Shown piece after piece: positions 18,327-21,119 of a stretch of DNA of 64,000 nt. The DNA is from Limnothrix sp. BL-A-16 (GTDB lineage Bacteria > Cyanobacteriota > Cyanobacteriia > CACIAM-69d). The notes beneath the pieces were generated by a model that was not told the origin of the DNA, ran no database searches, and was given only the letters and a program-made list of their open reading frames with translations. The stretch covers positions 3,168,001-3,232,000 of the forward strand of contig CP166615.1 in NCBI GenBank assembly GCA_041937175.2, given 5' to 3'. The position numbers and the translations under genes were made by a program. Position 1 is the stretch's first letter. Each line of letters begins with the position of its first letter.

Positions 18327-18519
18327 AATTGCGCTCACTCCACACCAAGGGTTTGTGTTGCTTTCCACACCAAATCGATCTTGCATCCGCACGATCGACA
18401 TAGTTCGCAACTCGCCTGAAGGATAGCACGGGCCGATCGAGGGGGTCGATCGCCCCGGATACCATGGCGGGGTCTGGGGGAGTGAGTAAACTTAAAGCAG
18501 ATGTGAGGAGCGATCGCCC

Positions 18520-19017
18520 ATGTTTGACCAAAACGAGTTAGCCAATCTTGAGAAAAATATCAAGCGCCTTAAGCAGCAGTTAGCGGGCAAACGCGACACC
18601 CTGGTCACGATCGCTTCAGACGAAAAAGTACGGATTCGGCAGCAAATTGAAGATCTACGCTCCGAGATCAACGGCTTGGAGCGGGAATATTGGGAACTGC
18701 TGCATCAGCGATCGATCAGCTTTGAGCCGTCGGAGGATGAAGCTGAACCGATCGTGGCGGAATGGGTTGAGAAAGCCAATCAGTTAGAGACGAATCCGCC
18801 CGCCAACGTGCCTGCTGAGATTTTGCAGCAGGTGCAGGCGGTGGCCAAACGGTTGGATCAGCCGGGTCAATCGGCTGCGATCAAGGTGAAGGGGATGATT
18901 TCGGCGTTGCCACCATTTTTCTCGGTGGGCATTGAGACCGAATTGGATGTGGCGGGATTTGTAAAAGGCAATTTCCCCACTTTTTGGAACTGGGCGGCGG
19001 CACTCGCAAAAAAGTAG
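18520..19017 (+). CDS. Helical hypothetical protein; probable N-terminal (effector) module of a frameshift-fused NLR-like protein
   Basis: GAGGAG SD at 18505-18510, ATG at 18520; coiled-coil N-half; ends ...ALAKK* on A_AAA_AAG_TAG. Confidence 0.8.
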   Translation: MFDQNELANLEKNIKRLKQQLAGKRDTLVTIASDEKVRIRQQIEDLRSEINGLEREYWELLHQRSISFEPSEDEAEPIVAEWVEKANQLETNPPANVPAEILQQVQAVAKRLDQPGQSAAIKVKGMISALPPFFSVGIETELDVAGFVKGNFPTFWNWAAALAKK

Positions 19018-19048
19018 ATGGCCCGGTTCCAACGCCGGGCCAAGAACC
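19008..19048 (+). promoter_or_regulatory. Putative -1 programmed ribosomal frameshift cassette
   Basis: A_AAA_AAG (19008-19014) in the upstream ORF frame, stop TAG, then stem (T)GGCCCGG-8nt-CCGGGCC(A) at 19019-19042; GGTTC/GAACC could form a second stem. Confidence 0.75.
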
Positions 19049-21119
19049 GCCGACAAATTTGCAGGATCGGGGGGTCGATCGCGATCGCTTCTTTGGACGC
19101 GATGACGTATTGCAGGATTTGCACGATCGGTTGGGGCGATCGGATCGGGTGGCGGTGACGAGTGTGGCGGGCATGGGCGGCGTGGGCAAAAGTGAGCTGG
19201 CGGTGCAGTATGCGCGGTGGCGGCTGCGGGAGGGGGACTATCGCGGCGGGGTGGTGTGGCTGGCGGGGGAACGGGCGGGGATTGAGCTATTGGGGTTTGC
19301 GAAGGCGCAGTTTTTCCCGGATGTGGATTTGGCGCAGTTAGGCGATTTACGCGAACAGTTGACGTTTATTTGGTCGCGTTGGCCGGTGCCTGAGGTTCCG
19401 CCGGAGTCGGTGCTGTTGGTGTTTGATGATGTGACGGATTACCGATCGCAGGTGGCGGATCTGTTGCCGAGTGACAAGCGGTTTCGGGCGATCGTCACGA
19501 CGCGGGAGCAGATCCAGGGGATCGATCGGTTGGATTTGGCGGTGCTGGCTCCGGCGGCTGCGTTGGACTTGTTGCGATCAATCGTTGGGGAAGCGCGGAT
19601 CGCGGCGGAACCGGAGACGGCGAGCGAGATCTGTGAATGGCTGGGCTTTTTGCCGTTGGGTTTGGAGTTGGTGGGCTATTATCTCCAGCGCAAGCCGAAT
19701 CTGTCGCTGGCAAAGCTGCTGGAACGGTTGAATGAGAAGCGTTTGGCGGCGAGGGCGTTAATCGATGTGCCGGTGACGCTGACGGCACAGCGGGGGGTCG
19801 CGGCGGCGTTTGAGTTGAGTTGGGAGGCGATCGGCGCGCAGGAGTGGGGCGAGTCGGCGCAGGCGTTGGCGATGCGGCTGAGTCTGTTTGCGGCGGCTCC
19901 GATTCCGTGGGGCTTGATGCAGGACTGTTGGGCGGCGGCGGATGAGGAGGAGTTGGAGGATTGGCGCGATGGGTTAGTGGCGTTGCATCTGATTGAGGAT
20001 GTCACCGGGGAGCGCTATCGGTTGCATCCGCTGATTCGGGAGTTTTTTGCAGCGAAGTTGGCGGCGCGGGCGGAGGCGACAGCCTGGCGGACGGCGTTTG
20101 CGGTGACGTTGACGAAGATTGCGAGAACAATTCCGCAGACTGTGACGCTGGAACAGCAAGCCCAGGTGCGCGAGGCAATGCCCCATCTGGAAGCCGCGAC
20201 GGATTATTGCGACCTACTGAGCGATGATGATTGCGGCTGGCCGTTCACTGGTTTAGCCCGGTTTTACGAAGCCCAAGGCCTGTTCGAGGATGCCGAGCGT
20301 TGCTCTCAGCATTGCCTCGATATGCGCGAAACCCGCTTCGGAGCCGACCACCCTGATACCGCCACCAGCCTCAACAATTTGGCGGCATTGTATGAATCGC
20401 AAGGGAAATACGATCGCGCCGAACCGCTCTACCAACGCGCCTTAGACATCAGAGAACAGCAACTGGGAGCCGACCCCCCCGCTACCGCCACCAGCCTCAA
20501 CAATTTGGCGGGATTGTACCGATCACAAGGGAAATACGATCACGCCGAACCGCTCTTGCAACGCGCCTTAGCGATCAGGGAACGGCAACTGGGAGCCGAC
20601 CACCCCCATACCGCCAGCAGCCTCAACAATTTGGCGCTTTTGTATAAATCGCAAGGGAAATACGATCGCGCCGAACCGCTCTACCAACGCGCCTTAGCGA
20701 TCTATGAACGGCAACTGGGAGCCGACCACCCCAATACCGCCAGCAGCCTCAACAATTTGGCGCTTTTGTATAAATCGCAAGGGAAATACGATCGCGCCGA
20801 ACCGCTCTACCAAAGCGCCTTAGACATCAGAGAACGGCAACTGGGAGCCGACCACCCCGATACCGCCGCCAGCCTCAACAATTTGGCGGTGCTGTATTTC
20901 TATCAAAATCGCTGGGGCGAGGCGGAGCGGTTGCTGGTGCGGGCGCTGCTGATTTGGGCGCAGGTGTTGGGCGAAGCGCATCCCGACACGCAAAGCTCGA
21001 TTCAAAGCTTGTTCAGCCTAATCGGTGCAGCCCTGAACCAGGGACGCGCCGCCGAACTCTCCGACCACCCCGTCACCCAATCCATCCTGCAACAACTCAC
21101 CACCCCACCCAACCCGTAG
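19014..21119 (+). CDS. NB-ARC (STAND NTPase) + TPR protein, NLR-like; -1 frame continuation of 18520-19017
   Basis: FFGRD, Walker A GMGGVGKSE, Walker B LLVFDDV, IVTTR, GFLPLGL, RLHPLIR, then 42-aa TPR repeats; no in-frame ATG before the P-loop. Confidence 0.9.
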   Translation, partial: VDGPVPTPGQEPPTNLQDRGVDRDRFFGRDDVLQDLHDRLGRSDRVAVTSVAGMGGVGKSELAVQYARWRLREGDYRGGVVWLAGERAGIELLGFAKAQFFPDVDLAQLGDLREQLTFIWSRWPVPEVPPESVLLVFDDVTDYRSQVADLLPSDKRFRAIVTTREQIQGIDRLDLAVLAPAAALDLLRSIVGEARIAAEPETASEICEWLGFLPLGLELVGYYLQRKPNLSLAKLLERLNEKRLAARALIDVPVTLTAQRGVAAAFELSWEAIGAQEWGESAQALAMRLSLFAAAPIPWGLMQDCWAAADEEELEDWRDGLVALHLIEDVTGERYRLHPLIREFFAAKLAARAEATAWRTAFAVTLTKIARTIPQTVTLEQQAQVREAMPHLEAATDYCDLLSDDDCGWPFTGLARFYEAQGLFEDAERCSQHCLDMRETRFGADHPDTATSLNNLAALYESQGKYDRAEPLYQRALDIREQQLGADPPATATSLNNLAGLYRSQGKYDHAEPLLQRALAIRERQLGADHPHTASSLNNLALLYKSQGKYDRAEPLYQRALAIYERQLGADHPNTASSLNNLALLYKSQGKYDRAEPLYQSALDIRERQLGADHPDTAASLNNLAVLYFYQNRWGEAERLLVRALLIWAQVLGEAHPDTQSSIQSLFSLIGAALNQGRAAELSDHPVTQSILQQLTTPPNP
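20340..20969 (+). repeat. 5 x 126-bp intragenic TPR repeats (four near-identical)
   Basis: GADHPxTAxSLNNLAxLYxSQGKYDRAEPLYQRALxIxERQL units at 126-bp spacing. Confidence 0.9.

Follow-up and report, generated by a model that had tools for sequence, protein, structure and literature searches.

A probable -1 ribosomal frameshift linking a small helical protein to an NB-ARC/TPR receptor in Limnothrix sp. BL-A-16 and other cyanobacteria

Two open reading frames overlap in the window, a stretch of 64,000 nucleotides from the genome of Limnothrix sp. BL-A-16. The first, ORF1, encodes a short helical protein, and the second encodes an NB-ARC and TPR polypeptide in the -1 frame relative to it. The question raised by this locus is whether these are two neighbouring genes or a single gene whose parts are joined by ribosomal frameshifting. 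From sequence comparison we consider it probable that ORF1 and the NB-ARC/TPR ORF constitute one recoded gene expressed by -1 frameshifting, with ORF1 as a putative adaptor or effector. Most likely, both a free ORF1 protein and a fused receptor would be made from one message.

The reading frames and the slip site

ORF1 (P0001; 18520..19017, plus strand) extends from an ATG at 18520 to a TAG at 19015-19017 and encodes 165 aa. Its frame is closed upstream by a TAA at 18493-18495, and a Shine-Dalgarno-like GAGGAG, presumably functional, is read at 18505..18510 on the plus strand, 9 nt 5' of the ATG. The 3' end reads GCA AAA AAG TAG, and the protein ends with ...ALAKK. The slippery heptamer A_AAA_AAG, of the X_XXY_YYZ type, lies here in frame 0 (19008..19014, plus strand) and directly adjoins the stop codon. 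The -1 frame, open between 18936 and a stop at 21117-21119, reads KKVDGPVPTPGQEPPTNLQDR across the slip site. Its post-slip reading (KKVDGPV..., 19008..21119, plus strand) would add 701 residues to the 165 of ORF1. Pfam models place a STAND NTPase module (AAA_16/NB-ARC) at 19086..19748 and a TPR array of the TPR_10/TPR_12 type, the presumed sensor, at approximately 20250..20990, both on the plus strand. The NB-ARC match (PF00931) scores 44 bits against a cutoff of 23.5 and includes a Walker A motif, GMGGVGKS, at 19170-19193; the C-terminal repeats are matched by TPR_12 (E 4e-84) and TPR_10 (E 6e-84). PADLOC, when applied to this ORF, returned a generic TPR model only. The extent of ORF1, its GAGGAG element, the in-frame heptamer before the stop and the -1 position of the NB-ARC/TPR frame had been described in an earlier note on this DNA, and all were confirmed by sequence.

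A GC-rich hairpin of 9 bp, a candidate stimulator of frameshifting, follows at 19019..19042 on the plus strand with a spacer of 4 nt from the heptamer. Positions 19019-19027 pair with 19034-19042 around a loop of 6 nt, the predicted free energy is -18.6 kcal/mol with a z score of -2.95, and only one of 200 shuffled sequences folds equally well. A GC stem had been noticed here before; its presence stands, but its extent and spacer are those given above. The segments GGTTC (19025-29) and GAACC (19044-48) are complementary, as a possible pseudoknot would require, but three bases of the former are already within the first stem, so the two pairings compete. No Shine-Dalgarno-like stimulator, which is a feature of dnaX and not universal in -1 sites, was found 5' of the heptamer in the window. 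Both tRNA-Lys(CUU) and tRNA-Lys(UUU) are encoded in the genome, and work in E. coli leads one to expect that tRNA-Lys(CUU) reduces slippage on AAG. Reading the hairpin and a T run as a minus-strand terminator was rejected, as the stem and the T run are 5 nt apart and no gene on that strand ends in the vicinity.

The earlier statement that the -1 frame has no ATG before Walker A holds, but TTG codons occur in it at 18984 and 19059. These two codons leave independent initiation possible at this locus when the window is taken by itself. The NB-ARC/TPR polypeptide would carry the N-terminal adaptor or effector only if the slip happens; in-frame equivalents of such a product are P0150 and P0159. 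A total of 1480 AAAAAA[AG] heptamers were counted on both strands of the genome, and the full pattern was found at two loci. The second, at C1:2718363, has an A9 run between genes for a GT4 glycosyltransferase and a methyltransferase; it was set aside as probably due to chance, the downstream gene having its own ATG. Within this one genome the architecture does not exceed chance, and its significance rests on the relatives. The neighbours of the ORF1 locus, encoding a phosphoglucomutase and a GH57 branching enzyme, are on the other strand, and a defence-island context was rejected on account of them.

The AF2 model of ORF1 (pLDDT 87.6) contains seven helices, and the first two, at residues 2-30 and 33-67, form an N-terminal helical hairpin (residues 1-67; 18520..18720, plus strand). 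This hairpin gives a borderline match to EAD9 (PF19962), with an E value of 4.7e-4 and 20.3 bits, under the Pfam cutoff of 25. The ORF1 family comprises 280 representatives at 50% identity. Eleven of 25 members match EAD9 at E<=0.01, the best being the close homologue P0002 with 25.7 bits. Since P0001 itself stays below the gathering cutoff, we term ORF1 EAD9-like without assigning it to the family. It has the small, non-enzymatic and all-helical character of EADs according to the model (hairpin 2-67), and about 100 more conserved residues lie beyond the EAD9-matching part. Elsewhere the ORF1 module is joined to TRADD-N, TIR/SEFIR and COR domains. Structural searches gave nothing at E<=0.001 with Foldseek against the PDB (best 0.16) and a best Z of 9.7 with VIA-align wide, in the range expected of generic helical hairpins. 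A PspA/ESCRT-III-like identity (CdvB, Snf7, CHMP4B and PspA; Pfam PspA_IM30 with E 1e-3) was rejected as not above noise. Matches in the ESM Atlas are cyanobacterial clusters only, without names, and PADLOC returned no defence-system model for ORF1, weak coiled-coil matches aside. Because it is all-helical and matches EAD9 at the borderline, ORF1 is taken as a putative adaptor common to the free and the receptor-tethered forms.

Conservation of the junction in cyanobacteria

An HMM search yielded 73 matches, corresponding to 67 unique cyanobacterial loci, of which 57 have a complete C-terminus. A slip site together with a -1 ORF, 222-1179 aa in length, is present in 36 of the 57 complete loci (class A). 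The others possess the slip site only (nine loci), neither element (eleven) or the -1 ORF only (one). The -1 frame in class A opens 7-82 nt 5' of the ORF1 stop, always just before the heptamer, and no conserved start is found in any of them. The heptamer lies 0-3 codons from the stop (within 19 nt), and in 34 of the 36 loci the distance is 0-1 codon. Thirty-one heptamers are A_AAA_AAG, four are A_AAA_AAA and one is G_GGA_AAA. The A run is longer in four relatives (L068, L070, L042 and L058), reaching A9, and three of these have a weak hairpin or none. The arrangement is spread over at least six GTDB families that carry codes and over the named families Coleofasciculaceae, Microcystaceae, Microcoleaceae, Leptolyngbyaceae and Oscillatoriaceae.

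Of 41 loci with a Lys-Lys tail, 40 encode it by NNA-AAA-AAR, whereas the codons used elsewhere in ORF1 lead one to expect 0.17; these loci are related, fall into 25 sequence clusters and do not represent 41 independent events. Both the AAA codon of the first Lys and the A at the preceding third position are retained in these 40, and the sole exception, L098 with GCG, has no -1 ORF. The slip signal is thus conserved at the nucleotide level beyond the need of the protein. The C-termini of distant homologues are also basic (RR, RK or GK), and because of these and of the nine loci with the heptamer only, the basic tail may be a feature of the protein itself.

The 3' hairpin is enriched among the 25 clusters, whose mean z is -1.36, the mean of 245 control windows being -0.06 (Mann-Whitney p 2.4e-5). 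In about half of the clusters, Microcystis and L040 included, it is weak or missing (z below -1.5 in ten clusters and above it in fifteen), and the stem sequences vary between groups. The expectation of the earlier note that heptamer, stop and hairpin would be conserved together with a downstream -1 domain was therefore borne out for the heptamer and -1 ORF in 36 of 57 loci, but the hairpin is not universal. An SD-like 4-mer occurs 5-20 nt upstream in 19 of the 36 relatives, where it overlaps conserved Lys-Ala codons.

The -1 ORFs at the junction belong to at least seven families and encode NB-ARC+TPR, NB-ARC+DUF7779, NACHT, nSTAND_NTPase4, nSTAND1+FGE-sulfatase, AAA_35, AAA_16 and TM+TPR proteins. 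Mapped onto the ORF1 tree, the partner types require 18 label changes versus a minimum of 8, and one well-supported clade mixes NACHT and NB-ARC partners. Across cyanobacteria the putative slip junction is a conserved and portable joint, connecting the ORF1 module to many STAND NTPases and to TM/TPR proteins.

The first ATG, GTG or TTG of the -1 frame is located 100 nt or more beyond the ORF1 stop in 16 of the 36 loci. In L068 and L070 the P-loop GDEQSGKT even precedes the first such codon (+539 and +578 nt), and dN/dS values of 0.33-0.43 denote purifying selection on the start-less stretch. Fusions at the same junction were also found. P0150 is an in-frame ORF1+nSTAND1 protein whose junction ...FKKALEY...CPYRGL matches the predicted slip product of L082, KKVISFDDCPYRGL, and P0159, P0114 and P0137 are further in-frame fusions; P0072 from Microcystis is a fusion made by deletion. 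Slip-site conservation, the -1 ORFs of at least seven families, the start-less P-loops, the enrichment of the hairpin and these fusions together support the programmed -1 frameshift and the two products of 165 and 866 aa that had been suggested from the window.

Alternative explanations

The same layout would arise from two ordinary neighbouring genes, if the NB-ARC/TPR protein started at one of the TTG codons (18984, 19059) or through coupling or reinitiation close to the ORF1 stop, and if the heptamer were a by-product of the conserved Lys-Lys. Beyond these TTG codons, such an arrangement agrees with the Crinalium plasmid homologue, which is annotated in RefSeq as two separate CDS, and with the homologues that lack the slip site: their C-termini are basic, and an ATG or GTG belonging to the next gene lies 3-12 nt past the stop. 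(The downstream proteins in these slip-less relatives start with a coiled coil of their own, which matches EAD9 weakly in two of four cases, E ~3e-3, with an hhalign probability of 28%.) The nine loci in which the heptamer persists but a long -1 ORF is missing, and the encoded tRNA-Lys(CUU), point the same way. The RefSeq start in Crinalium, however, removes the stretch SQEKLL...LTLG, which six further loci conserve. The selected stretches of L068 and L070 offer no start before the P-loop, the opening of the -1 frame is constant where a start codon is not, the codon choice at Lys-Lys far exceeds expectation, and in-frame fusions share the junction. We accordingly give two separate genes a low probability here; independent initiation is unlikely for the ORF1 family as a whole and possible for this particular locus.

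A change at the RNA level is a still smaller probability. RNA polymerase would slip and add one A, giving a minority of in-frame fusion mRNAs without any slip of the ribosome, and the four relatives with runs of up to A9, three of them with little or no hairpin, fit this. Yet 31 of the 36 sites are exactly A_AAA_AAG with six A's only, and a run of six is shorter than those known to make RNA polymerase slip efficiently. Slippage by the ribosome agrees with the G at position 7, with a heptamer kept strictly in frame and with the enrichment of hairpins on its 3' side. Very unlikely is a broken gene or an assembly error, whereby a single ORF1-NB-ARC gene would have lost one A (A7 to A6). Homopolymer runs are prone to error, and distant relatives do have in-frame ORF1-STAND fusions; against this, many genomes and assemblies, with 36 loci between them, show the same frame layout, a full-length in-frame version is absent from all 57 complete loci, and purifying selection acts on both halves, each of which is intact. 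In three metagenome contigs from relatives (X1 records 4 and 5, X2 record 14) the A6 run is read through with no indel. An A7 in relatives had been named beforehand as the sign of such an error, but they and the contigs show A6, and we regard sequencing error and pseudogene as all but excluded.

A proposed mechanism and its relation to known systems

Under programmed frameshifting, most ribosomes would halt at the TAG at 19015 and release the free helical protein of 165 aa. A fraction would slip back by one base on A_AAA_AAG (19008-14), probably aided by the hairpin (19019-42) and by the stop codon next to the site, and proceed in the -1 frame to yield an ORF1-NB-ARC-TPR protein of 165 + 701 = 866 aa with the junction peptide ...ALAKKVDGPVPTPGQEPPTNLQDR. 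ORF1 would be an EAD-type adaptor or effector module, and its free and tethered copies may bind homotypically; such contacts could serve recruitment or polymerisation once the receptor has oligomerised, or else hold the receptor in check. The ratio of free to tethered copies would be set by the frameshift rate. This homotypic-interaction model is drawn entirely from the borderline EAD9 match and from analogy. That the fusion would be the minority product, that ORF1 would be an 'effector' and that the arrangement would fix stoichiometry or let the receptor nucleate free effector are likewise suggestions, in keeping with the earlier note.

A wider reading is tentative. The junction could be a portable joint of cyanobacterial immune-type receptors, through which an adaptor or effector, in some cases with TRADD-N or TIR, would be made free and, at a fixed low ratio, covalently tethered to a STAND NTPase or TM/TPR sensor in the -1 frame; an activated receptor would then cluster the tethered copies and seed the free pool. 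Such seeding, equally tentative, would resemble the logic of NLR-ASC or NLR/HET-S, but by recoding and not by duplicated adaptor domains. The same joint may serve other N-terminal modules.

IS3-family OrfA/OrfAB and the phage tail chaperones G/GT produce a short protein either alone or fused by a -1 shift to a large downstream part. As in those cases, the slip here would occur at the end of the upstream ORF, and the upstream product would be free or fused; unlike them, the gene is of NLR type and chromosomal (on a plasmid in Crinalium), with no transposase or tail function. Long and short isoforms of tail chaperones by programmed frameshifting are described in the available part of bioRxiv 10.64898/2026.01.04.697583. 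The -1 signal of E. coli dnaX (tau/gamma), in the accessible text of Antonov et al. 2013 (PMC3711429), has the identical A_AAA_AAG, a 3' hairpin and two products with a common N-terminus in a ratio fixed by the slip rate. In dnaX, however, the slipped product is the shorter one and an SD-like element precedes the heptamer, while here the slip would lead to the long product, the stop of ORF1 adjoins the heptamer, the window has no SD-like element and the organism has tRNA-Lys(CUU). That paper also treats magnesium chelatase and other cellular recoded genes with fused homologues, as far as its available text goes, and these share the poly-A slip site, the two-gene annotation and natural in-frame fusions in other species. 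ORF1 is a different protein family and is not among the clusters named in that text or in two supplement files.

In EAD-coupled STAND and conflict systems, helical modules were proposed to couple by homotypic contact (Kaur et al. 2020, eLife, PMC7159879, available portion). In those systems a small helical non-enzymatic module occurs on the core NTPase and again on a stand-alone protein encoded beside it. The published scheme has two encoded EAD copies, whereas one copy would serve both proteins here by way of recoding. Neither the available text of PMC7159879 nor PMC8195603 contains the words frameshift, slippage or recoding. Pairs of Bell-domain and NLR genes with amyloid signalling motifs, with overlapping ORFs in 42% of pairs, were reported from multicellular cyanobacteria in the accessible part of Dyrka et al. 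2020 (bioRxiv 10.1101/2020.01.06.895854), where 'frameshift' has no occurrence. In these pairs, similarly, the gene of a small helical protein immediately precedes an NB-ARC/NACHT-TPR gene and is collinear with it. Bell genes differ in starting independently and in encoding the common short motif twice, and the N-terminus of ORF1 is polar, with no hydrophobic helix. No Bell-type family was matched in ORF1 by Pfam at E<=0.1.

Our search of the literature on frameshifting with EAD, STAND, NLR/NACHT, NB-ARC or anti-phage defence found no such description, and a search on 'EAD9' returned noise only. To our knowledge, conserved programmed frameshifts are few in bacterial cellular genes outside phages and mobile elements. 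If the proposed frameshift is true, a large and diverse family would be added to them, and it would be the first reported recoding-based expression logic for NLR-like (STAND) receptors. One message would provide a free adaptor or effector module together with a receptor bearing it, in a ratio set by the ribosome. The control of adaptor-to-receptor stoichiometry and homotypic recruitment in bacterial NLR/EAD biology would thereby become testable. In public annotation, as exemplified by one RefSeq record, these loci are divided between a 'hypothetical protein' and an NTPase with a truncated N-terminus, so the N-terminal ORF1 module would escape surveys of domain architecture in cyanobacterial NLRs.

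ORF1 and its relatives

ORF1, encoding a 165-aa protein (P0001), extends on the plus strand from the ATG at 18520 to the TAG at 19015-19017. It is preceded by GAGGAG at 18505-18510, and its frame is closed upstream by a TAA at 18493. The gene ends GCA AAA AAG TAG, with the slippery heptamer A_AAA_AAG in frame at 19008-19014 and abutting the stop. On the same strand, the -1 frame has no stop between 18936 and its terminal one at 21117-21119; it reads ...KKVDGPVPTPGQEPPTNLQDR...FFGRDD...GMGGVGKS and matches Pfam NB-ARC (44 bits against a cutoff of 23.5), AAA_16 and, strongly, a TPR_10/TPR_12 array. The observation in the earlier note of ORF1, the in-frame heptamer at its stop and a -1 NB-ARC/TPR ORF was confirmed by coordinates, Pfam and folding. 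Its statement that no ATG precedes the Walker A motif in the -1 frame holds and extends to GTG, but TTG is present at 18984 and 19059.

The window alone is compatible with two ordinary genes. AAAAAA[AG] heptamers number 1480 in this genome, and only one other locus in it shows the full pattern of ORF, A-run, close stop and long -1 ORF, apparently by chance. This match lies outside the window (L105:1546-1570; genome G000, contig C1, ~2718363, minus strand), where an 891-aa GT4 glycosyltransferase ORF terminates in an A9 run and a methyltransferase follows; it is probably a coincidence because the methyltransferase has its own ATG. GCGATCGC palindromes, which we take to be the cyanobacterial HIP1 repeat with no role implied, are frequent, one directly before the ORF1 start (18510-18517) and a pair just past the hairpin (19076-19090).

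A total of 71 ORF1 homologues were found by word-indexed search, with size ranging from 90 to 289 aa and almost all of ~162-169 aa. They are almost all cyanobacterial (Acaryochloris, Leptolyngbyaceae, Microcystis and others), and their C-terminus is, with few exceptions, ...AKK or ...LKK. When 1.84 billion representatives were searched by profile, 280 matched at E<=1e-3, and 153 of these reached E<=1e-10. Homologues are present in 37 of 401 sampled genomes of the phylum, and in 20 of 156 genera. Two or three paralogues, every one with a different downstream partner, occur in each of four genomes (G056, G216, G300 and G194), like the lineage-specific expansions of published effector-associated domain (EAD) families.

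The DNA of 74 loci plus the window was collected and ORF1 was placed by an HMM from the family alignment; the 73 matches collapsed to 67 unique loci, and the C-terminus is complete in 57. The earlier note had proposed checking whether the motif is kept in homologues with a -1 downstream domain, and it is kept in 36 of these 57 (class A), which have an in-frame A-rich X_XXY_YYZ heptamer no more than 19 nt from the stop and a -1 ORF of at least 200 aa. The class A -1 ORFs span 222-1179 aa and open 7-82 nt before the stop. Nine loci have the heptamer with a short -1 ORF (class B), two being at contig ends and the others looking decayed, and eleven have neither feature (class C). The remaining one, L096, has the -1 ORF only; its sister L093 carries A_AAA_AAG 34 nt before the stop. 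No full-length in-frame fusion was found among the 57 complete loci.

Proposed slip signal and translation of the downstream ORF

Class A heptamers comprise 31 A_AAA_AAG, 4 A_AAA_AAA and 1 G_GGA_AAA, and the stop is separated from the heptamer by no codon in 17 loci, by one in another 17 and by three in two. Where ORF1 has Lys-Lys within its last four residues, the pair is encoded by NNA-AAA-AAR in 40 of 41 loci, against an expected 0.31 x 0.56 = 0.17 from codon usage elsewhere in the same genes; since the loci are related, these are not 41 independent trials, and their downstream sequences group into 25 clusters. The residue ahead of the pair differs among loci (Ala, Leu, Val, Pro, Glu, Gly, Ile, Lys). 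The sole exception, L098 (GCG AAA AAG TGA), likewise has no -1 ORF. TAAGG, covering Lys-Ala codons, is found 8-12 nt upstream of the heptamer in L034, L071-L078 and others, at the distance where the SD-like stimulator of dnaX sits, and is inseparable from the protein conservation. The window has GGCGGCGGC, and no SD-like element upstream of its heptamer.

Folding of the 50 nt after the heptamer in the window gave, on the plus strand, a 9-bp stem (19019-19027 with 19034-19042) that closes a loop of 6 nt and is separated from the heptamer by 4 nt; the folding energy is -18.6 kcal/mol (z -2.95). The family mean z over 25 clusters is -1.36, compared with -0.06 in 245 control windows inside the same -1 ORFs (Mann-Whitney p 2.4e-5), and z < -1.5 is reached in 10 of 25 clusters versus 10% of controls. 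Class B loci average z -0.04. The stem sequences vary by group (GGCCCGG, CCTCTGATC, ACCACGATC, ACCTGGA, CACCCTGAT, CCCCGATA), as would be expected of a structural signal. Not every locus has the hairpin: it is weak or absent in Microcystis, L040 and the A9-run loci. A minus-strand terminator at 19019-19052, where the hairpin and a T run score terminator-like, was rejected; no minus-strand gene ends nearby.

A sequencing error or pseudogene could split one gene into two frames, and the earlier note named A7 in reads or close relatives as its sign. This is excluded, as the arrangement recurs, both halves are under selection, and three metagenome contigs of relatives (run X1 records 4 and 5, run X2 record 14) cross the run as A6 without indel. 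Transcriptional slippage is unlikely at A6 and plausible for the few A9 loci. Independent initiation of the downstream ORF is contradicted for the family and still a viable reading of the window locus. An ATG, GTG or TTG precedes the ORF1 stop in the -1 frame of only 4 of the 36 class A loci, and in 16 of 36 the first one lies at least 100 nt past that stop. The first candidate start of L068 (+539 nt) and of L070 (+578 nt) comes only after the P-loop GDEQSGKT, and the 150 codons past the slip site have dN/dS of 0.33-0.43 (dS 0.38-0.83). In the NACHT group the first start codon falls within or past the conserved segment SQEKLLQAVTTEV..LAQSLHNAVWLTLG. At the sequence level, the slip site is conserved with an adjoining stop, the hairpin is enriched, and start-less -1 ORFs are under selection. 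The -1 frameshift proposed in the earlier note for the ORF1/NB-ARC-TPR gene is well supported by this comparative genomics.

The same junction (GCA AAA AAG TTG TAG) occurs on the mobilizable plasmid pCRI9333.05 of Crinalium epipsammum PCC 9333 (NC_019736.1; L106:3590-3830). RefSeq annotates two separate CDS there, a hypothetical protein and a NACHT protein, and the annotated NACHT start, the Met of ..LTLGMERQ.., removes the NACHT-group segment SQEKLLQAVTTEV..LAQSLHNAVWLTLG, which is conserved in six other loci.

Downstream partners and fusions

The -1 ORFs start KKV..., continue into a Pro-rich linker and then diverge. NB-ARC+TPR is the partner in many loci; the others are NB-ARC+DUF7779, NACHT, nSTAND_NTPase4, AAA_16/nSTAND5, nSTAND1+FGE-sulfatase (L082), AAA_35 (L081), and TM+TPR without NTPase (L079, L080, L086, L087). 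Partner types need 18 changes on the ORF1 maximum-likelihood tree, where the minimum is 8. One well-supported clade (95/95) mixes six NACHT with four NB-ARC partners, and L081 and L082 are sisters. The junction was therefore kept while partners were exchanged. Near-relative contigs (X1 record 5, X2 record 14) match ORF1 and the slip site and diverge soon past the hairpin (19028-19063), which would fit partner exchange among close strains.

Full-length ORF1 is joined in frame at the N-terminus of four proteins among the best 150 profile matches: P0150 (1169 aa, nSTAND1), P0159 (1315 aa, AAA_16+TPR), P0114 (575 aa, TM+TPR) and P0137 (367 aa, GUN4). The P0150 junction, ...LFKKALEYDKEVKAINPDVYCPYRGL..., is that of the predicted L082 slip product (KKVISFDDCPYRGL). 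In P0072 (746 aa, Microcystis panniformis, cluster of 59 sequences), ORF1 residues 1-68 are joined to ...SAKKVSIPSIPS... and NB-ARC-TPR. The sequence past this junction equals the -1 reading of the Microcystis locus L045 (L045:5480-7615); an internal ORF1 deletion therefore hard-wired the fusion, leaving a hairpin-NB-ARC-TPR protein without the C-terminal two thirds of ORF1.

ORF1 module and proposed mechanism

The AlphaFold2 model of ORF1, built on the family alignment, is all-helical and confident (pLDDT 87.6), with a long hairpin of residues 2-67 followed by five shorter helices. Foldseek, VIA-align and ESM Atlas gave nothing specific on its fold or cluster identity. EAD9 matches the N-terminal hairpin at a borderline level (20.3 bits in P0001 and 25.7 in the homologue P0002, cutoff 25), and at E<=0.01 in 11 of 25 family members. 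In the account of Kaur et al. 2020 (PMC7159879), EADs are small helical adaptors carried both by a core NTPase and by a separate protein encoded next to it, their coupling by homotypic contact is proposed, and EAD9 is among those that recruit signalling components.

We propose that two tRNA-Lys slip in tandem on A_AAA_AAG, so that free ORF1 would be the main product and ORF1-NB-ARC-TPR the lesser one. The two forms may interact via their common ORF1 module, a step with much less support than the slippage; such contact could seed assembly of the free pool upon receptor oligomerisation, or restrain the receptor. This genome encodes tRNA-Lys(CUU) besides tRNA-Lys(UUU), which, going by work in E. 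coli, should lower slippage.

Slippage by -1 at A_AAA_AAG is a known mechanism, and the setting proposed for it here, NLR-like receptors with an adaptor module, appears to be undescribed. Full-text searches for frameshifting with effector-associated domains, STAND and cyanobacteria, NLR/NACHT, NB-ARC or anti-phage defence gave no relevant match. The term 'frameshift' is absent from the article texts of Kaur 2020 (PMC7159879), Kaur 2021 (PMC8195603) and Dyrka 2020 (bioRxiv 10.1101/2020.01.06.895854), and appears in two bacterial NLR/Avs preprints in unrelated contexts only. The ORF1 family is not named in the searched parts of Antonov et al. 2013 (PMC3711429).

Most of the 11 class C loci are distant homologues that group in a clade of their own on the ORF1 tree. 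In L083, L092, L095 and L097 the next gene has its own ATG or GTG 3-12 nt past the stop and opens with a coiled coil (..KFELR..IEECQ.EI..LE), followed by an NB-ARC-TPR, PPC, GUN4 or periplasmic-binding domain. The coiled coil weakly resembles the ORF1 N-terminus, with EAD9 as top Pfam match in two of four (E ~3e-3) and an hhalign E of 6e-4 at 28% probability. If this likeness is real, it would suggest that these loci have the published two-copy EAD layout and that the slip loci swap the second copy for recoding.

The ORF1 module is also found at the C-terminal end of P0089 (TRADD-N), P0202 (TIR/SEFIR), P0161 (COR) and P0073 (SNF2 helicase). P0073 and P0089, of the close subfamily, end ...AKR or ...AKKS, and the more distant P0161 and P0202 end differently. 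Slippage at these loci, if it occurs, would release an effector-adaptor protein as the free form.
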